Origin: a virus
Taxonomy: Duplodnaviria > Heunggongvirae > Uroviricota > Caudoviricetes
DNA length: 11,637 bases
Virus record (IMG/VR): IMGVR_UViG_2534681675_000022
Strand: one strand, 5' to 3'
Shown: one piece after another, positions 3,345 to 11,322 of the stretch
Position numbering within the stretch: the first letter of the stretch is position 1
Layout: each line of letters begins with the position of its first letter
Made by a program: the position numbers and the translations under genes
Notes under the pieces: generated by a model
Told to the model about the DNA's origin: nothing
Database searches by the model: none
The model's input: only the letters and a program-made list of their open reading frames with translations

Positions 3345-3542
3345 ATGGTTGCCGTAAATCATATACCACACCTTGTACACACACAAACTGCCTTTGTGTG
3401 GCGTTTTCTGGCCCTGAGTGCCGGAGAATCTCAAATCATCCACGTCACCGCCTGGACGGAACGCGAAGCGCGTAACCGTTGCCCGTCCGGTTGTGTTGCT
3501 GTATTTGCCGCCCGTATTCGTCAGGAGGTGCGCCATGATTAA
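3345..3542 (+). CDS. Hypothetical protein (65 aa), first gene of rightward operon
   Basis: ATG at 3345 preceded by AGGAG; the longer ORF-track version starts upstream of the RBS. Stop overlaps the start of the next ORF. Confidence 0.5.
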   Translation: MVAVNHIPHLVHTQTAFVWRFLALSAGESQIIHVTAWTEREARNRCPSGCVAVFAARIRQEVRHD

Positions 3543-4192: not shown

Positions 4193-4492
4193 ATGAAACT
4201 TAAATATTCTGGCTTAACTGCCAGTGGCAACACTCACCCTAAATTTACGCGCGGTGATATTTACCGCGACCAGTACGGCGGCACGGTAATGATTAAGGGC
4301 GTGGCGGGACGGTGCGTAACTTACCGCCATGAAGGTTACGAATATGATTGCGTGATGCCTGTTTATCAGTTCCGGCGTGATTTTTCTCTGGTACAGACCG
4401 CGCCGCATAACGTGCCCACCAGCAACGCCAGGGCACGGGCAAACATCCAGAAGCTGAAAACCATGATTAACGGATTCAGGGGTAAAAAATGA
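4193..4492 (+). CDS. Hypothetical protein (99 aa), overlaps start of replication gene
   Basis: ATG 4193 with GGAGA upstream; its stop overlaps the ATG of the primase ORF (ATGA coupling). Confidence 0.55.
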   Translation: MKLKYSGLTASGNTHPKFTRGDIYRDQYGGTVMIKGVAGRCVTYRHEGYEYDCVMPVYQFRRDFSLVQTAPHNVPTSNARARANIQKLKTMINGFRGKK

Positions 4493-6237
4493 AACTGGCA
4501 CCGAACGTAAAAAAACAGCCACGCGGAATAAAACACAAAGACACAGAGGTAATTATCTTTGCGGGTAGTGATGCCTGGTCGCACGCGAAACAATGGCAGG
4601 AGCAGGATGGCCCCGCATCCGGCGATAATGTGCCGCCTGTGTGGCTTGGGCCAAAGCAGCTTGCCGAACTTGATGCGCTGAAAATTGTTCCGGATGGGAA
4701 AAAGCGCGTAAGGCTGTACCAGGCCGGAGAACTGGATTTAGTGGAGACCAAAAAGATTGGTCAGAAGCTGGCGGCGGCAGATATTCAGGACGCAAATTTT
4801 TACCACGAAGGAATGCACGTCCAGAAGTGTGAAAACTGGCGGCGCTATCTGAATGCTGAGCGTGAAAATATTGCCGCAGGGCTTACCATGCCGGAGCAGA
4901 AAAATACGCAACTGGCACAAATGGCAGACAGTGAGCGCGCACAGATGCTTGCTGGTCGATTTGATGGCGTTTGTGTGCATCCGGAAAGTGAAATCGTTCA
5001 CGTATGGCGCGGCGGGGTATGGTGTCCGGTCAGCACAATGGAACTTAGCCGCGAAATGGTGGCGATCTATTCAGAGCACAGGGCCACTTTCAGCAAACGC
5101 GTGATCAATAACGCCGTTGAAGCGTTAAAAGTTATTGCCGAACCAATGGGGGAGCCGTCCGGCGATTTGTTGCCGTTCGCCAATGGTGCGCTTGACCTGA
5201 AAACGGGGGAATTTTCCCCGTACACGCCGGAGAACTGGATCACCACGCACAACGGCATTGAGTACACGCCACCAGCACCTGGGGAGAACATCCGCGATAA
5301 CGCGCCAAACTTTCATAAATGGCTTGAGCACGCAGCCGGAAAAGACCCGCGCAAGATGATGCGTATATGTGCCGCGCTGTACATGATTATGGCGAACCGG
5401 TACGACTGGCAGATGTTTATTGAGGCCACCGGAGACGGCGGGAGCGGTAAAAGTACATTCACACACATAGCCAGCCTTCTGGCAGGGAAACAGAACACGG
5501 TAAGCGCTGAAATGACATCGCTTGATGATGCTGGTGGACGTGCGCAGGTTGTCGGGAGTCGTCTTATCGTCCTGGCAGACCAGCCGAAATATACAGGCGA
5601 AGGAACGGGCATCAAGAAAATCACGGGCGGCGACCCCGTGGAAATAAACCCGAAATATGAAAAGCGTTTCACGGCGGTAATCAGGGCGGTGGTGCTGGCG
5701 ACCAATAATAACCCGATGATATTCACCGAACGGGCCGGAGGTGTGGCACGTCGTCGCGTGATTTTCCGTTTCGACAATATTGTTAGTGAGGCCGAAAAAG
5801 ACAGGGAACTACCGGAAAAAATTGCGGCTGAAATCCCCGTTATTATCCGCCGCTTGCTGGCGAACTTTACCGACCCTGAAAAGGCGAGGGCTTTACTACT
5901 GGAACAGCGTGACGGTGATGAAGCACTGGCAATAAAGCAACAGACGGATCCGGTTATTGAGTTTTGCCAGTTCCTGAATTTTCTGGAGGAAGCGCGCGGC
6001 CTGATGATGGGTGGCGGTGGTGATTCAGTGAAGTACACGACCAGGAACAGCCTTTACCGCGTCTATCTGGCGTTTATGGCATACGCAGGCAGGAGCAAAC
6101 CGCTAAACGTGGCTGAGTTCAGCAAGGCCATGAAGCCAGCGGCGAAAGTTTACGGGCATGAATATATTACGCGAAAAGTTAAGGGAGTAACGCAGACCAA
6201 CGCAATTACAACAGACGATTGCGACGCGTTTTTATAA
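4489..6237 (+). CDS. Replication initiator: phage/plasmid primase-associated D5_N-type domain plus P-loop (SF3-helicase-like) NTPase
   Basis: 582-aa ORF. Walker A GDGGSGKST and a Walker B-like hydrophobic stretch RLIVLADQ; central region typical of the P4-family primase C-terminal/D5_N architecture; located directly upstream of an iteron array. Confidence 0.85.
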   Translation: MKLAPNVKKQPRGIKHKDTEVIIFAGSDAWSHAKQWQEQDGPASGDNVPPVWLGPKQLAELDALKIVPDGKKRVRLYQAGELDLVETKKIGQKLAAADIQDANFYHEGMHVQKCENWRRYLNAERENIAAGLTMPEQKNTQLAQMADSERAQMLAGRFDGVCVHPESEIVHVWRGGVWCPVSTMELSREMVAIYSEHRATFSKRVINNAVEALKVIAEPMGEPSGDLLPFANGALDLKTGEFSPYTPENWITTHNGIEYTPPAPGENIRDNAPNFHKWLEHAAGKDPRKMMRICAALYMIMANRYDWQMFIEATGDGGSGKSTFTHIASLLAGKQNTVSAEMTSLDDAGGRAQVVGSRLIVLADQPKYTGEGTGIKKITGGDPVEINPKYEKRFTAVIRAVVLATNNNPMIFTERAGGVARRRVIFRFDNIVSEAEKDRELPEKIAAEIPVIIRRLLANFTDPEKARALLLEQRDGDEALAIKQQTDPVIEFCQFLNFLEEARGLMMGGGGDSVKYTTRNSLYRVYLAFMAYAGRSKPLNVAEFSKAMKPAAKVYGHEYITRKVKGVTQTNAITTDDCDAFL

Positions 6238-6520: not shown

Positions 6521-6835
6521 ATGCGCATACATCAAAATCACTTAACAAACATGCCAGCCGAAAACATGAATCAGGGGCGACAAATGACCAAAATTCGCAG
6601 AGACAGAACAGAGCCAAAATATAAAGCGTTAGACATGACTGAGCACACCTTAAAGGTGGCAATCAGAACGATAGACCGCCACACGCGGGAAGGATACGCG
6701 AAGGAACATCCCGAACTGATAAGCGCATTCATGACCACAGCGGCGGCAAACTTTGCCACGCTGACAGAACGGGAGATTGCCGAAGCGGAACAGGTAACAA
6801 CCATCAACGTTAAAACCGGAGAGGTGGAATCATGA
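6521..6835 (+). CDS. Hypothetical protein (104 aa)
   Basis: ATG 6521 preceded by GAGGGGGTG; its stop overlaps the SSB start. Confidence 0.5.
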   Translation: MRIHQNHLTNMPAENMNQGRQMTKIRRDRTEPKYKALDMTEHTLKVAIRTIDRHTREGYAKEHPELISAFMTTAAANFATLTEREIAEAEQVTTINVKTGEVES

Positions 6836-7242
6836 CAGCACAGATAGCCGCTTACGGGCGGCTGGTGGACGACCCGCAGGTAAAACAGACCAGCAAGGGC
6901 ACACCGATGACGCTGGCGCGTATGGCGGTCCCCCTTCCGTGCAGCCAGGCAGATGACGGAACGGCTACGTTATGGCTATCGGTGATGGCATTTGGTAAGC
7001 AGGCCGACTTCCTGGCTAAACATCAAAAAGGCGACGTTGCCAGCATATCTGGCGTGATGCAGATAAGCCAGTGGACCGGACTGAACGGGGAAACGCGGCA
7101 GGGTTATCAGGTTATTGCAGACAGCGTAATCAGTGCCCGTGCGGCACGTCCTGGCGGGAACAGACGCAAAACCACAGGCGCACAGGGTAATCAGCCACCA
7201 GCGGGAGACGATGACCCCTACGGTGATGATATTCCGTTCTGA
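6832..7242 (+). CDS. ssb: Single-stranded DNA-binding protein (OB fold) with acidic C-terminal tail
   Basis: 136-aa ORF. N-terminal GRLVDDPQVKQTSKG and the W...FGK...KG...G spacing fit the SSB OB fold; Gly/Gln/Pro-rich linker; C-terminal DDDPYGDDIPF is the canonical SSB tail motif. Confidence 0.75.
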   Translation: MTAQIAAYGRLVDDPQVKQTSKGTPMTLARMAVPLPCSQADDGTATLWLSVMAFGKQADFLAKHQKGDVASISGVMQISQWTGLNGETRQGYQVIADSVISARAARPGGNRRKTTGAQGNQPPAGDDDPYGDDIPF

Positions 7243-7250
7243 ACGCACAG

Positions 7251-7273
7251 GCCGGAGAAAATCCGGCTTTTTG
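7251..7273 (+). terminator. Intrinsic terminator after ssb
   Basis: GCCGGA gaaaa TCCGGC followed by TTTTT. Nearly identical to the terminator at 9517-9542. Confidence 0.7.
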
Positions 7274-7276
7274 TAC

Positions 7277-7325
7277 CCAAAAAAAGCCCGATAAGTACAG
7301 GAGGAAGCTTATCGGGCTTTTGCTT
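7277..7325. terminator. Second hairpin with flanking A/T runs; candidate bidirectional terminator
   Basis: AAGCCCGATAAG (7284-7295) / CTTATCGGGCTT (7308-7319) 12-bp stem, 12-nt loop, preceded by AAAAAAA and followed by TTTGCTT. Confidence 0.5.
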
Positions 7326-7394
7326 ACGAGGTTAACAGCATGGTGACTACTGTTGCTGTAAATCATTTCATAATTTGCAACGCAACTCAATTTT

Positions 7395-7444
7395 ATTGCG
7401 CAAAATGCAATCATGATTATAATCATAACTGGATGAACATCCAG
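7395..7444 (+). promoter_or_regulatory. Candidate late-operon promoter with embedded palindromic operators
   Basis: Perfect TATAAT (7418-7423) with a weak -35 (TTGCGC, 17-bp spacer). The -10 sits inside a perfect 14-bp palindrome ATGATTATAATCAT (7413-7426), followed by a perfect 16-bp palindrome CTGGATGAACATCCAG (7429-7444). Confidence 0.4.
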
Positions 7445-7479
7445 TTGTGATTTTTTAAGTCAAAGAGGAATTTCTGACT

Positions 7480-7686
7480 ATGGCAGAAGAGAAAAAAGGC
7501 GGTGTTTCGGTGTACATAAGCCCCGAAATCGTGGAGGTGCTCAAGCAGCGCCACAAAAAAAACTATGAGGCTGGCGTAGCGGCTGGACTGGATCCGCTGA
7601 TGACGCCGGAGCCGTCGATAGGTTCACTTGTGCGCTCTTATTTACTTGCGGCGCTTGGGATGCATAAAAATTATGGGGGTGAATAA
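7480..7686 (+). CDS. Hypothetical protein (68 aa), first gene of capsid operon
   Basis: ATG 7480 with AGAGGA upstream; its stop overlaps the ATG of the major capsid gene. Confidence 0.55.
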   Translation: MAEEKKGGVSVYISPEIVEVLKQRHKKNYEAGVAAGLDPLMTPEPSIGSLVRSYLLAALGMHKNYGGE

Positions 7687-8741
7687 TGGCAGGCAAAGCA
7701 ACGGCACTTAACACTAACCAGCTTTTTGCGTACCTGAATCGCGGGGATATTGCGGAATTTAAATTCAGTCCGCTGTTTACCACGCTGTTTTTCCCGAACG
7801 TGGCGACATTCAGCACCCAAAACATCATGCTGGATACCCTGGACATTGAAGAAGTCACCATGTCGGCGTTTTGTTCGCCTATGGTTGGCAGCCAGGTACA
7901 GCGCGATAAAGGATACGAAACCAGCACGATTAAACCTGGCTACATGAAGCCAAAGCACGAAATCGATCCAACAAAAACCATCATGCGCATGGCTGGAGAA
8001 GATCCGGCACAGCTTAACGACCCTACCTACCGACGTATGCGCCTGATTACTGGCAACATGCGCCGCCAGGTAAACGCCATTAAAGCGCGCGTGGAATGGC
8101 TGGCGGTGAATGCGATAACGACCGGAAAAAACATTATTGAGGGCGAAGGCATAGAACGCTATGAAATAGACTGGAAAATACCGGAAAACTGCATCATAGA
8201 GCAGGCCAAGGGTAAAAAATGGTCCGAGCAGGATAAAGAGATGCACGACCCAATCTATGACATCGAGCTTTATGCAGATCAGGCTGGTTGCCCCGCAAAC
8301 GTCATGATTATGGGCGCTGAGGTATGGCGCACGTTACGCAGCTTTAAAAAATTCCGTGAGCTGTACGATCTTTCCCGTGGTTCAGAATCCGCCGCAGAAC
8401 TGGCCTGTAAAAACCTGGGCGAAGTGGTGAGCTTTAAAGGCTATCTGGGCGATATTGCCCTTATCGTCTATTCCGGCAAATACGCTGACAGCGACGGCAC
8501 CGAAAAATATTTCCTTGAGCCTGATTTACTGGTCCTGGGTAACACCAACAATAAAGGCCTGGTGGCCTATGGTGCGATTATGGATCAGGAAGCGGTCAGA
8601 ACGGGCGCAACGCAAAACATGTACTACCCGAAAAACTGGATTGAGGACGGCGATCCGGCGATTGAGTACGTGCAGACACACAGCGCACCGCAGCCGGTAC
8701 CGGCAGATATTCGCAAATTTGTTACCGTCAAAATTGGTTAA
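7686..8741 (+). CDS. Major capsid protein, phage lambda gpE family
   Basis: 351-aa ORF colinear over its whole length with lambda gpE (341 aa) as I recall it: EFKFSPLF vs KFKFDPLF; PGYMKPKHEI vs PGYVKPKHEV; EDPAQLNDPTYRRMR vs EDPQNLADPAYRRRR; SRGSESAAELACKNLGEVVSFKGYLGDIALIVYSGKY vs RRGSNSELETAVKDLGKAVSYKGMYGDVAIVVYSGQY; YPKNWIEDGDPAIEY vs YPKNWVTTGDPAREF. Confidence 0.9.
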   Translation: MAGKATALNTNQLFAYLNRGDIAEFKFSPLFTTLFFPNVATFSTQNIMLDTLDIEEVTMSAFCSPMVGSQVQRDKGYETSTIKPGYMKPKHEIDPTKTIMRMAGEDPAQLNDPTYRRMRLITGNMRRQVNAIKARVEWLAVNAITTGKNIIEGEGIERYEIDWKIPENCIIEQAKGKKWSEQDKEMHDPIYDIELYADQAGCPANVMIMGAEVWRTLRSFKKFRELYDLSRGSESAAELACKNLGEVVSFKGYLGDIALIVYSGKYADSDGTEKYFLEPDLLVLGNTNNKGLVAYGAIMDQEAVRTGATQNMYYPKNWIEDGDPAIEYVQTHSAPQPVPADIRKFVTVKIG

Positions 8742-8752
8742 CGGGGGATTCT

Positions 8753-9088
8753 ATGGACACTCCATACATTGAGTTATTCGCAGGCAGTCAGCAGGTCGCC
8801 ACGACGCTGGTACATTTTGCCGCTGATGCTGGCGTTATTCAGGAATTTACCCCGCTGATGCTGGCGGACAATGGCGAGTTTAAGCCGTGGGATGGTCAGG
8901 AATCTGGCAAGGCTGTTTATCTGACTTCGTACCCCGTGGACACGTCGACGCAGAAATCAGCACAGTGTTACAAGACGGGGATATTTAATATCGCTGCCGT
9001 AAACTGGCCTGAGAGCGCCGACACTGACGCGAAAAAATGCGCTGCCTTTGCGGGGGCTGGCGTATCCGTTCAGCCGCTGGCCCGATAA
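8753..9088 (+). CDS. Head decoration protein, phage lambda gpD family
   Basis: 111-aa ORF. TPLMLADNGEFKPWDG, YKTGIF and WPESADTDAKKCAAFAGAGVSV match lambda gpD ([46 protein letters not shown]). GGGGGA Shine-Dalgarno upstream. Confidence 0.85.
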   Translation: MDTPYIELFAGSQQVATTLVHFAADAGVIQEFTPLMLADNGEFKPWDGQESGKAVYLTSYPVDTSTQKSAQCYKTGIFNIAAVNWPESADTDAKKCAAFAGAGVSVQPLAR

Positions 9089-9097
9089 GCAGGGGGA

Positions 9098-9514
9098 ATG
9101 ATGGCAACGAATGAAAGCATCATGACGCTACCGCTGGCGAGTAAATTTAAAGCCGAAGCGCGGGCAATGGCTGACAGAGGGTTATCAACCTACGAGGGCA
9201 TATATCAACTTAACAAACTGGAAGAGCAGGACAAGCCGCGCGCTGATTCGATTATGGCGCTTGATGAATCTGGCGACTATCAGCCGCTGTTACGTGCAAT
9301 GGCAAACGTGCCTTGTATCGATGTTGGTACGGCTAAAAGCATCCTTAGCATGACCATAGAGCAGGAACGTCCGAAGGTTGCGCCGGAGCTTACCGCAGCC
9401 TTTGAAAACTTTATGGACACGCACAGCCCGCAAGCCGTATCAGCTGGCATGGCATACGATGGCAGAAACCCGGGCGATGACGGCGACATCGATCGCATAC
9501 TGAAAACCATCTGA
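9098..9514 (+). CDS. Hypothetical protein (138 aa) downstream of the capsid genes
   Basis: ATG 9098 or 9101 after AGGGGG; last gene before the terminator and cos. Sits where lambda has FI, but I could not support sequence similarity to FI. Confidence 0.55.
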   Translation: MMATNESIMTLPLASKFKAEARAMADRGLSTYEGIYQLNKLEEQDKPRADSIMALDESGDYQPLLRAMANVPCIDVGTAKSILSMTIEQERPKVAPELTAAFENFMDTHSPQAVSAGMAYDGRNPGDDGDIDRILKTI

Positions 9515-9516
9515 GA

Positions 9517-9542
9517 CAGGCCGGAGAAATCCGGCTTTTTTT
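9517..9542 (+). terminator. Intrinsic terminator after the capsid operon, abutting cos
   Basis: GCCGGA gaaa TCCGGC followed by eight T residues; near-duplicate of the 7251-7273 terminator. Confidence 0.75.
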
Positions 9543-9610
9543 ACGGGTCCTTTCCGGCATATGGACCCGTTACGGGGCGGCGACCTCGCGCGTTTTCGCT
9601 ATTTATGAGC
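9543..9610 (+). other. Lambda-type cos site A: cosQ-side flank, cosN (12-nt cohesive end GGGCGGCGACCT at 9575-9586) and first ~24 bp of the cosB side
   Basis: ACGGGTCCTTTCCGG...GTTACG GGGCGGCGACCT CGCGCGTTTTCGCTATTTATGA is almost base-for-base the lambda right-end/left-end junction as I recall it; similarity ends after TTTATGA. Confidence 0.75.
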
Positions 9611-9719: not shown

Positions 9720-10262
9720 ATGAAATCGCACCTGATGAACAAAAAAAACATGGCGAAAAGCTGCCGTGTAAGTGCGACAGCGTTCGACAAGTGGGGAGTG
9801 ACTCCCGTTGAACGTAAAGGCCGTGAGGCGTTTTATGATGTTGCCAGCGTGATAGACAATAGGGTTAACAATGCAATTAGCCAGCTTACAAACGACAAAG
9901 GCGATATTGATGATGATGAACTCTTACGAGTCAGGATCAGATTACTGACAGCACAGGCGGAGGCGCAGGAACTTAAAAACGAGCGCGATCGCGGTGACGT
10001 GATTGATACTGAGTTTTGCCTGTACGCGCTTTCAAAGCTGGCGAGTCAGATTTCATCAATCATGGACAGCCTCCCGCTTACTATGCAAAGGAGCTTCCCA
10101 CAGATTACCCCCGCCATGCTGGACAGGCTTAAAAGGGAAGTGGTTAAAGCCTGTAATGCCAGTGCCAGAGTTGCCGACAACCTCCCACAGATACTGGCTG
10201 ATTACTTGAAAGAAACAACCGGAAACGTACCGGAAAAGTTGCTACAGAAGAAAGGCAAGTAA
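9720..10262 (+). CDS. Terminase small subunit, lambda Nu1 family
   Basis: 180-aa ORF. C-terminal two-thirds align with lambda Nu1: LLTAQAEAQELKNERD vs LTRAQADAQELKNARD; FCLYALSKLASQISSIMDSLPLTMQRSFPQ vs FCTFVLSRIAGEIASILDGLPLSVQRRFPE; LKREVVKACN vs LKRDIIKAMN. N-terminal wHTH region is recognisable (NKK..., YDVASVI vs YDSAAVI) but divergent in the recognition-helix region. Start could be 9720, 9735 or 9750. Confidence 0.85.
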   Translation: MKSHLMNKKNMAKSCRVSATAFDKWGVTPVERKGREAFYDVASVIDNRVNNAISQLTNDKGDIDDDELLRVRIRLLTAQAEAQELKNERDRGDVIDTEFCLYALSKLASQISSIMDSLPLTMQRSFPQITPAMLDRLKREVVKACNASARVADNLPQILADYLKETTGNVPEKLLQKKGK

Positions 10263-10288: not shown

Positions 10289-10490
10289 GAGAAAGGATCT
10301 GATAATGGCATTTTCTGGCTAAAATGCCTCGTGTCAGATCCTTTCTTTTTTTAATATTTTCATTGTTAAACAGTCTGTTACAGAGAAGAAGAACGGATCT
10401 GACTTTTGCCGGAAAATTTTCATAAACAGATAAAAACCGCGAGGTCGCCGCCCCGTAACGGGCCATAATTCCAGGAAGGACCCGACGACA
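10289..10490 (-). other. Lambda-type cos site B in inverted orientation: cosQ-side flank, cosN (10442-10453) and a full cosB-like region with three R-like repeats
   Basis: Minus strand reads CGGGTCCTTCCTGGAATTATGGCCCGTTACG GGGCGGCGACCT CGCGGTTTTTATCTGTTTATGAAAATTTTCCGG ...CCGTTCTTCTTC..., tracking lambda cos for more than 100 bp. Core GGATCTGA/TCAGATCC at 10294-10301, 10333-10340 and 10395-10402 sits where lambda has CGTTTCC/GGAAACG, in the same orientation pattern. The inner 13-bp inverted repeat (10289-10301 / 10333-10345) plus T-run also looks like a terminator for terS. Confidence 0.75.
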
Positions 10491-10517: not shown

Positions 10518-10799
10518 ATGACAGAAGCCGAACTACTGCGATTAATCCGCCGCGTTACCGGAATCAGCCAGCAGCATGACGAACAGGGCACGCAACCGGA
10601 CAGCGTGACCGCTGAAAATTATGCGCGTGTTGTTGCTGAGGTGATGCGCCGTGATGGTATTGAGCTTAACGGCGTGGATATGCGCAACATACGAACCAGA
10701 GTCCTTGAGTTGCTGGCATACCGTCGCCGCGTGGAGATGTATCGGGAGAAGGAGAAAATCACGTACCACTGGAAGAAGCCGGAACGGTTGCGGCGGTAA
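10518..10799 (+). CDS. Hypothetical protein (93 aa) just outside cos B
   Basis: ATG 10518 after GATGGGGG; Arg-rich helical-looking protein; no recognisable family. Confidence 0.4.
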   Translation: MTEAELLRLIRRVTGISQQHDEQGTQPDSVTAENYARVVAEVMRRDGIELNGVDMRNIRTRVLELLAYRRRVEMYREKEKITYHWKKPERLRR

Positions 10800-10882
10800 C
10801 TCACTGAGATTAAAGCAAAGCTCAAAATTGCGCTGGCTGAATGATCATTATGATTACTTATGTTTACGCAGATGATTAAGGC
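10789..10882. repeat. Direct repeat, copy 1 (~90 bp), overlapping the 3' end of the 93-aa ORF
   Basis: GGCGGTAACT...TTAAAGCAAAGC[TG]CAAAATTGCGCTGGCTGAAT[GA]ATCATTATGATTAC...GCAGATGATTAAGG; copy 1 has an extra TTATGTT relative to copy 2. Confidence 0.6.
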
Positions 10883-10922
10883 CTAAACCGTTGATTATTC
10901 CACAATCCCCCATTGGGGGAAG

Positions 10923-11005
10923 CTGGCGGTAACTGGTTGAACTTAAAGCAAAGCGCAAAATTGCGCTGGCTGAATAATCATTATGATTACGCAGATGATT
11001 AAGGA
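10923..11005. repeat. Direct repeat, copy 2 (~83 bp)
   Basis: Same unit as 10789-10882. Contains the AGCGCAA aa TTGCGCT hairpin and the ATCATTATGAT palindrome. Confidence 0.6.
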
Positions 11006-11022: not shown

Positions 11023-11322
11023 TTCGCCTGTGGTTGATGGGGGAGTTGCAGATCTGCAACTCGACCATGAAATTACGGAAACTACCCGTAGTTTGGGTAG
11101 TAAGAGCAACACCCAGATTTTGGGGCTTACTCGTGATACCCAAATTTGGGGTATCGGCGGCAACCATAACGACTTTCGTTACGGTTGATGCTTTTACCCC
11201 ATTGAGGGAAAGGTATTACGATAATCATAACACCTACCGAACAGGTAAAGCCCACCAGCCTGATTAACTGTTAACCGGAAAAAAATTCCGGTAGGGTTCC
11301 CGATATGGGAATCCCCATATCG
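11023..11322. other. Palindrome-dense non-coding region near the right end of the island (candidate att arm / regulatory or structured RNA region)
   Basis: Consecutive perfect or near-perfect palindromes: AGGCGGAAATTCGCCT; GTTGCAGATCTGCAAC (16 bp); AAACTACCCGTAGTTT; GATACCCAAATTTGGGGTATC; TTAACTGTTAA; CCGGAAAAAAATTCCGG; CGATATGGGAATCCCCATATCG. No convincing ORF. Confidence 0.4.

Follow-up and report, generated by a model that had tools for sequence, protein, structure and literature searches.

A predicted LexA operator at the capsid operon promoter of an EcCICFT073-type PICI of E. coli

Introduction

Which signals switch on the capsid genes of a Gram-negative PICI? Islands of this kind are described as AlpA-controlled elements that respond to a helper phage and not to SOS (PMC6092414). 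In EcCICFT073, c1499 and c1500 are the capsid and decoration genes and deletion of either gave no phenotype (PMC6092414), while its Rpp redirects the packaging of the helper (PMC6092414, PMC6739421). The stretch of DNA analysed here (11,637 nucleotides; hereafter the window) raises this question through the region in front of its capsid operon, which a preliminary description had read as a tightly regulated promoter with two palindromes, repressed by a dimeric protein and/or dependent on an activator. Here, we ask what these palindromes are by combining operator scoring against known E. coli sites, comparison of related islands and RNA folding, and we weigh a host LexA operator against a family-specific repressor, a terminator, an antitermination cassette and the absence of any regulation.

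Results

The island and its capsid operon

The whole 11.6-kb window is a complete chromosomal island with tqsA as its insertion site. Judged by its gene content, it is an EcCICFT073-type PICI of E. coli: it is chromosomal, about 11 kb long, and carries int, alpA, primase/replication genes and a packaging module with a Nu1-like Rpp and a lambda-type cos. Its main features, with the capsid operon on the plus strand, are as follows.

1–1218: integrase
1593–1781: AlpA, a 62-aa Phage_AlpA HTH protein
4489–6237: D5-type primase
6832–7242: SSB
7250–7272 and 7282–7321, plus strand: two strong intrinsic terminators (inverted repeats) at the end of the ssb/replication operon
7463–7469, plus strand: Shine–Dalgarno sequence AAGAGGA for orf68, read from the sequence and invariant in relatives
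7480–7686, plus strand: orf68, first gene of the operon (phrog_3255; c1498 equivalent)
7686–8741, plus strand: lambda E-like major capsid protein, c1499 equivalent (Pfam Phage_cap_E, 4.6e-51; phrog_29)
8753–9088, plus strand: lambda D-like head decoration protein, c1500 equivalent (Pfam HDPD, 3.4e-17)
9098–9514, plus strand: 138-aa scaffold-like protein (phrog_1999; phrog_53 positions 496–567)
9518–9545, plus strand: intrinsic terminator closing the capsid operon, a near-copy of the terminator at 7249–7275
9720–10262: Nu1-like small-terminase homologue

The 138-aa protein shows weak similarity to the C-terminal part of a head maturation protease/scaffold. The terminators behind the replication operon fold strongly as RNA (−36.7 kcal/mol, z −5.6, for 7250–7321) and lie in the variable DNA that precedes the conserved cassette. 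Near-identical terminators, GGCCGGAGAAA(A)TCCGGCTTTTT, bracket the capsid operon (7249–7275 and 9518–9545); CFT073 and the Sakai capsid-forming island have close versions of them, and their placement suggests the edges of a module. The lambda-type cohesive-end sequence GGGCGGCGACCT (9575–9608), with a continuation resembling the left end of lambda, lies after the capsid-operon terminator and before the Nu1-like gene, and a second cosN-like copy is present on the minus strand at 10440–10455; the two probably correspond to cos1 and cos2 as described for EcCICFT073.

A sigma-70 promoter with a weak −35

Upstream of orf68, in what is probably the promoter/operator cassette of the operon (7361–7479), we distinguish the following elements, with positions relative to a predicted start near 7430.

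7361–7394 (about −70 to −36), plus strand: conserved upstream block AATCATTTCATAATTTGCAAC...CAAT, with hardly any change across E. coli, Salmonella and cq9-type islands
7395–7411, no strand assigned: dyad ATTGC-N7-GCAAT over the −35 and spacer, occurring once in the window
7396–7401, plus strand: probable −35 TTGCGC, three of six matches, 16-bp spacer, TTGC invariant in relatives
7413–7426, no strand assigned: perfect 14-bp palindrome ATGATTATAATCAT, which contains TATAAT
7418–7423, plus strand: probable −10 TATAAT, six of six matches
7421–7435 and 7438–7452, with a T run at 7451–7456, plus strand: long, terminator-like inverted repeat whose left arm overlaps the −10
7427–7446 (about −4 to +17), no strand assigned: predicted LexA (SOS) box AACTGGATGAACATCCAGTT, by heterology index, rarity and conservation

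Compared with the sigma-70 arrangement of two hexamers 16–18 bp apart, TTGCGC and TATAAT agree at nine of 12 positions over a 16-bp spacer, and both hexamers are conserved. The preliminary description was right to see the promoter region of the capsid operon here, to call its −35 poor, and to place a perfect −10 inside a 14-bp palindrome. It is the weak −35 that left this promoter unlisted in a consensus scan, which required four of six matches in each hexamer. Since the −10 ends at 7423, transcription should, judging by the hexamers, start near 7430, and this puts the downstream dyad at about −1 to +15, not at +5 to +20 as first proposed. With TTG and a perfect TATAAT at 16-bp spacing, an activator need not be required. 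An alternative promoter farther upstream, such as one using CATAAT at 7369–7374, was rejected: it has no usable −35, and sequence upstream of 7361 is not conserved.

By itself the 14-bp palindrome is unremarkable, because at least one perfect palindrome of 14 bp or more turns up in 57% of Markov-shuffled windows; the window itself holds four, with 0.8 expected. Its inner 12 bp are almost invariant in relatives, half of these being the −10 itself. The outer pair alternates between A-T and C-G and is unpaired in five of 18 variants, with a covariation that 29 of 500 shuffles equalled. It is a −10 hexamer with symmetric flanks, and more than this we cannot say of it. Further perfect palindromes are CAGTATGCGCATACTG (16 bp, 1236–1251), just after int, and GAGTTGCAGATCTGCAACTC (20 bp, 11043–11062) at the right end. 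A third, the 16-bp ATGTGTATATACACAT at 2493–2508, stands 6 bp beyond a perfect sigma-70 consensus promoter, TTGACA and TATAAT with a 16-bp spacer (2459–2486). This promoter probably serves rightward early transcription of the island and has the same promoter-plus-operator layout (2459–2508) as the capsid promoter.

The downstream dyad resembles a LexA box

The second palindrome, CTGGATGAACATCCAG, is present at 7429–7444 but is not a perfect 16-mer: arms of 7 nt surround a non-symmetric AA (7+2+7), and its reverse complement differs from it at two positions. It is the core of the 20-bp sequence AACTGGATGAACATCCAGTT, which has the invariant CTG-N10-CAG of enterobacterial LexA boxes, whose full consensus is TACTG(TA)5CAGTA. 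We scored it by the Berg–von Hippel heterology index (HI), using a symmetrised count matrix from 18 K-12 LexA boxes (PMC3009722 Table 4). AACTGGATGAACATCCAGTT reaches an HI of 7.34; the K-12 boxes, each left out in turn, give 2.0–17.0 (recA 7.1, sulA 7.3, ruvA 8.6). Among LexA-type sites in the window it ranks first, 2.9 HI units ahead, the next two scoring 10.2 and 12.5, and a site as good occurred in 0.33% of 300 Markov-shuffled windows (window-wide p of about 0.003). The nearest known box is that of ruvAB, CTGGATATCTATCCAG, with 12 of the 16 core bases identical and the central four different. Both half-sites are CTGG/CCAG, off the CTGT/ACAG consensus, and the same is true of the ruvAB box. 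As AACTGGATGAACATCCAGTT begins only 3 bp past TATAAT, LexA bound there would occlude the start site.

Two further LexA-like sites, both imperfect, lie in the int–alpA spacer: TACTGGATAAGTGCACAGAT (HI 12.5) and AGCTGGTTTTTTATACATTA (HI 10.2, lacking the CAG), at 1247–1266 and 1358–1377. Their equivalents in the Sakai Sp7 island score 12.1 and 8.2 (L419:36150 and 36261; L numbers denote compared loci). In the window, these spacer sites are weaker than the capsid-promoter box.

The box is held in register among relatives

Relatives were gathered in two ways: a 16-mer of the upstream promoter led to 26 unique promoter variants, and the capsid protein by itself to 80 loci. Conservation is the clearest indication that the region has a function. 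The islands become homologous abruptly at 7361, and the block 7361–7456 retains at least about 85% identity even in Salmonella islands with an orf68 protein that is only 53–55% identical, so that in E. coli and Salmonella alike it is far better conserved than the adjoining coding sequence. The LexA box is in register in 23 of the 26 promoter variants (HI 6.4–10.2), three Salmonella islands among them, and it occupies the same position in 79 of the 80 capsid-anchored loci, the exception having a 1-nt insertion. Upstream of c1498–c1501 in EcCICFT073 the box is identical.

Where the box is present, its CTG and CAG do not vary; changes are confined to the centre or flanks. Several variants carry a recurrent change of CATCCAG to CATACAG, which breaks the palindrome and improves the LexA score (HI 6.4). 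A protein site predicts such a change and a hairpin does not, which favours the former. Taking together the match itself, how seldom one as good arises in shuffles, where it lies with respect to the predicted −10 and how well it is conserved, we infer that the downstream dyad is probably an operator of host LexA, and that the capsid operon would be repressed by LexA and induced by SOS.

The expectation that the palindromes should be conserved was borne out for the LexA dyad in nearly all capsid-anchored loci but not throughout the family: three related lineages (the cq9 type, L333 and L342) lack it, and all of these have TAAAAT in place of TATAAT. They run the same operon without it, so the module can do without the box. 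The pattern fits a joint evolution of the stronger −10 and the repressor site, as far as can be read from these sequences. Two individual copies depart in other ways: in L337 (926–945) the hexamer reads TGTAAT, with the key A of the −10 lost, and L295 has a 1-nt insertion within the LexA box. Both are apparently decaying copies of the cassette.

Sequence similar to 7330–7700 occurs in 620 of 5,426 complete E. coli genomes (about 11%), and among the carriers of the promoter cassette are CFT073 (C_RS07005–07020), Nissle 1917 (ECOLIN_RS06575–06590), TW14359 and many strains of O157:H7, O145 and O55. In CFT073 the same capsid operon adjoins phoQ. At the roxA–phoQ site PV15-279, CFT073 and Nissle have the E/D-type module (compared loci L002 and L251), and Sakai Sp7 (L419:34712–49001) has a capsid-forming PICI module with an HK97-type head, protease, portal and terminase. 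Both kinds of module stand behind similar int, ssb and pchE-like genes, so packaging modules are exchanged as complete units. No LexA box precedes the capsid gene in the Sakai module. SOS RNA-seq of O157:H7 strain PA20 (PMC5931665, S2) was mapped to Sakai, whose island has this different head module at the site.

A possible terminator hairpin at the same position

Dyad symmetry would suit a hairpin in RNA or DNA too, and this counts against the LexA reading. The inverted repeat at 7421–7452, of which the downstream dyad is a part and which the preliminary description had missed, has 15-nt arms that are 93% complementary; a scan lists it with 14 pairs (7421–7434 and 7439–7452), a 4-nt loop and a T-rich tail, and flags it as terminator-like. 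A repeat with arms of 14 nt, at most one mismatch and a loop of at most 6 nt arises in 2% of shuffles. The repeat and its T run could be an intrinsic terminator that insulates the capsid operon from read-through out of the replication operon, with the LexA-like symmetry incidental or serving both purposes. The hairpin folds at −19.3 kcal/mol (z −4.9) and its Salmonella version at −14.8 (z −4.3). Three stem pairs have changed on both sides (C-G to T-A in L201, and G-C in L186 and L131), to an extent that four of 500 shuffles equal, and in the enlarged set a G in the left arm never faces a G in the right.

We nonetheless consider a terminator rather unlikely to be the main explanation. The stem has only four G-C pairs and only four U follow it; the pair 7426/7447 forms in 65% of variants and is open in about a third; the G-to-A change in L321, L274 and L338 is uncompensated; and, as the sequences are closely related, the apparent covariation may be linkage. 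In lineages that lack the LexA box the hairpin is not significant (−10.3, z −1.7, in the cq9 type) but the T run is still there, so this run seems to belong to the 5′ UTR. At 100–180 bp upstream there are already two terminators that are much stronger. Finally, the left arm is missing from a transcript that starts from TATAAT, and such a transcript is no more stably folded than shuffled sequence (z 0.08). An insulating role beside that of a LexA operator is possible but secondary.

A conserved dyad over the −35 and candidate regulators

The most deeply conserved feature of the region is the upstream dyad together with the block at 7361–7394. Most relatives have the dyad in the form ATTGCA-N5-TGCAAT, and every one of the five lineages, with or without a LexA box, retains TTGC-N7-GCAA. 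In L342 (870–960), whose capsid protein is 76% identical to that of the cq9 type and which has no LexA box, TTGCA-N5-TGCAAT occurs twice, 32 bp apart, each copy followed by GATGA; this pair looks like tandem operators. The upstream dyad is the best candidate for the site of a second, family-specific regulator, which it probably binds, and the block at 7361–7394 is a possible activator or second-operator region.

Could such a regulator, encoded by the island or its helper, account for the palindromes in place of LexA? An orf68 autorepressor, AlpA or a phage repressor would be candidates. This idea, in essence that of the preliminary description, we find doubtful. It draws on the ATTGC-N7-GCAAT dyad and the TGATTAnAATCA core, which are found in every lineage, with or without a LexA box, the dyad being doubled in L342; on the outer pair of the 14-bp palindrome, which switches between A-T and C-G; and on orf68, the one gene that is always adjacent, whose predicted extended segment and two helices are compatible with an RHH monomer (AlphaFold pLDDT 70; helices at 15–34 and 47–58 after the extended segment). 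However, it covers the upstream dyad and the −10 palindrome and not the downstream dyad, which LexA explains specifically. The −10 palindrome is mostly the −10 hexamer, and palindromes of 14 bp are not rare. orf68 has no Pfam match even at E-values up to 1 and no fold match (best Foldseek E-value against the PDB 3.8), and its assignment as an RHH protein was therefore dropped.

The promoter motifs recur neither at alpA nor elsewhere in the island, and we could identify no site for the 62-aa AlpA in the capsid promoter. The proposal of a dimeric-repressor operator is supported for the downstream dyad, whereas nothing was found to implicate AlpA, the supposed RHH gene or a helper late activator. 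Lambdoid helpers express their late genes through Q antitermination in cis, and not through a diffusible activator.

Other known sites were compared by their familiar motifs and set aside. A sigma-54 promoter would have GG at −24, which is missing; for lambda CII (TTGC-N6-TTGC) the second half-site is wrong; a CRP site gives no match; the ATGAT/ATCAT half-sites of a Fur box are there with a spacing of 4 instead of 1; and CytR octamers, GTTGCATT, resemble the upstream dyad, but the flanking CRP sites are absent. In Rfam nothing came near the gathering score for 7200–7700, and a search of the phage database with the intergenic region found no match.

Antitermination and unregulated expression

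The layout superficially resembles antitermination cassettes of the Q type or the P. aeruginosa AlpA type, in which a factor site lies between −35 and −10, a sigma-dependent pause follows, and a terminator is bypassed once the factor has loaded: here too a dyad lies in the −35/spacer region with a hairpin and T run downstream, as in lambda pR′-qut-tR′ and P. aeruginosa PalpB-tB, and 13 nt, GCAAAATGCAATC, are identical to the lambda pR′ leader. Unlike in those two systems, the hairpin lies over the −10; its left arm overlaps the hexamer, so that no hairpin is present in the transcript of the capsid promoter. There is no convincing −10-like pause element near the capsid promoter and no Q-like protein. 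The AlpA of the island, a 62-aa Phage_AlpA HTH protein, is unrelated to the Q-like AlpA of P. aeruginosa, whose residues are numbered past 140 (PMC9371919), and the stretch resembling the lambda spacer stands 6 bp out of register. A cassette of this type, which would have a terminator within the transcript and a Q-like factor, was rejected on geometry and protein family, and we regard it as scarcely credible. The 13-nt identity itself is at 7400–7412 and in lambda just upstream of tR′ (L252:233–245, lambda 44712–44724), with a hairpin and T run following in both; it is probably chance, as its first bases vary among relatives.

It is also very improbable that the promoter is constitutive and its palindromes by-products of A+T-rich sequence. 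The region has a G+C content of 33% and 14-bp palindromes are common by chance, but a 95-bp block whose conservation in E. coli and Salmonella surpasses that of the neighbouring coding sequence, and a LexA match with a window-wide p of about 0.003 that is held in register, are not what such an origin would give.

The ATGATTA motif and the right-end repeats

A related half-site motif had been noted in the repeats at the right end of the island, and a shared binding protein proposed. The motif ATCATTATGATTAC is indeed present at 10844–10857 and 10977–10990, within a 66-nt direct repeat. This repeat (10792–10990; 89% identical, 133 bp apart) holds the dyad GCGCAAAATTGCGC and clustered ATGATTA/AATCAT heptamers, and it was not found in most of the relatives checked. 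The shared protein did not survive the comparison: the motif is absent from the right ends of L002–L005, L199, L201 and L206, all of which keep the promoter palindromes. Throughout the window ATGATTA occurs 14 times against 1.7 expected. This excess is no evidence of a shared site, since six of the 14 copies lie in coding sequence and have no flanks in common, and the one at 3535 forms an annotated start codon after a Shine–Dalgarno sequence.

Discussion

Our comparison of one island promoter with known operators and with its relatives points to an ordinary SOS switch in a setting where it has apparently gone unreported; a literature search for LexA together with EcCICFT073 or PICI gave, among the papers covered, no report of LexA control in a Gram-negative PICI, and the SaPI paper appeared in reference lists only. 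In the mechanism we propose, a LexA dimer on AACTGGATGAACATCCAGTT would block RNA polymerase in the undamaged cell and keep the operon off. DNA damage would activate RecA, LexA would cleave itself, and the capsid operon would be derepressed, the promoter then driving orf68 and the capsid, decoration and scaffold-like genes (7480–9514) up to the terminator at 9518–9545. The signal that frees the capsid operon would thus be the one that induces lambdoid helper prophages.

The predicted operator has close counterparts in the E. coli chromosome. The boxes of ruvAB (CGCTGGATATCTATCCAGCA) and cho (CACTGGATAGATAACCAGCA) are likewise 20-bp LexA operators with CTG-N10-CAG, and the agreement with the ruvAB core, CTGGAT-N4-ATCCAG, at 12 of 16 positions extends to the G/C that departs from the consensus at position 4 in each half-site. 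In contrast, LexA control has been demonstrated for ruvAB and cho, which are repair genes of the chromosome, whereas the capsid box is a predicted site in a mobile satellite, and the flanks and the central four bases differ. SOS promoters of colicins and other mobile elements also combine a strong −10 with a LexA operator that lies within a few bp and covers the start site. Colicin promoters usually have two overlapping boxes; the capsid promoter has one box and a separate dyad over the −35.

A second parallel is with the SaPIs, whose operon I, for packaging and capsid morphogenesis, is LexA-controlled according to Ubeda et al. 2007, as that work is cited in PMC6092414 and PMC6739421. In both satellites the capsid/packaging module would stand directly under the host SOS repressor and the rest of the island under a separate helper-sensing regulator, an arrangement that in our island is predicted from the DNA sequence. 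The genes differ (cpmA/B, terS and others in SaPIs), as does the master regulator, the Stl repressor there and the AlpA activator here. The LexA box of Gram-positive bacteria also has a sequence different from the enterobacterial one. The likeness is one of working alike and not of homology.

How would LexA control relate to AlpA? Induction of alpA was reported to depend on the helper and not on SOS (PMC6092414). Given this, and the lack of a phenotype for the c1499 and c1500 deletions, LexA control would form a separate layer: AlpA governs excision and replication, and a LexA layer on the capsid operon would stand apart from it. One could go further and imagine a gate with two inputs, in which LexA sits on the start site and a satellite-family regulator, the orf68 product or a helper-phage protein, on the −35 dyad, so that capsid would be made only when SOS coincides with a helper- or self-linked signal. 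The LexA box would then be a later addition in E. coli and Salmonella lineages whose −10 was upgraded to TATAAT, and the operator might also serve as a terminator hairpin, shielding the operon from read-through driven by AlpA. We think this fuller scheme unlikely to be right as a whole and offer it as speculation.

If LexA does hold the capsid promoter, one module of the island has a direct SOS input beyond AlpA, mirroring SaPI operon I in what would be a convergence of unrelated satellites. It would also provide a handle on c1499 and c1500, whose expression could be set by lexA alleles or by DNA damage without a helper. SOS-inducing antibiotics would then turn on satellite capsid genes in the pathogens and probiotic strains that carry these islands.
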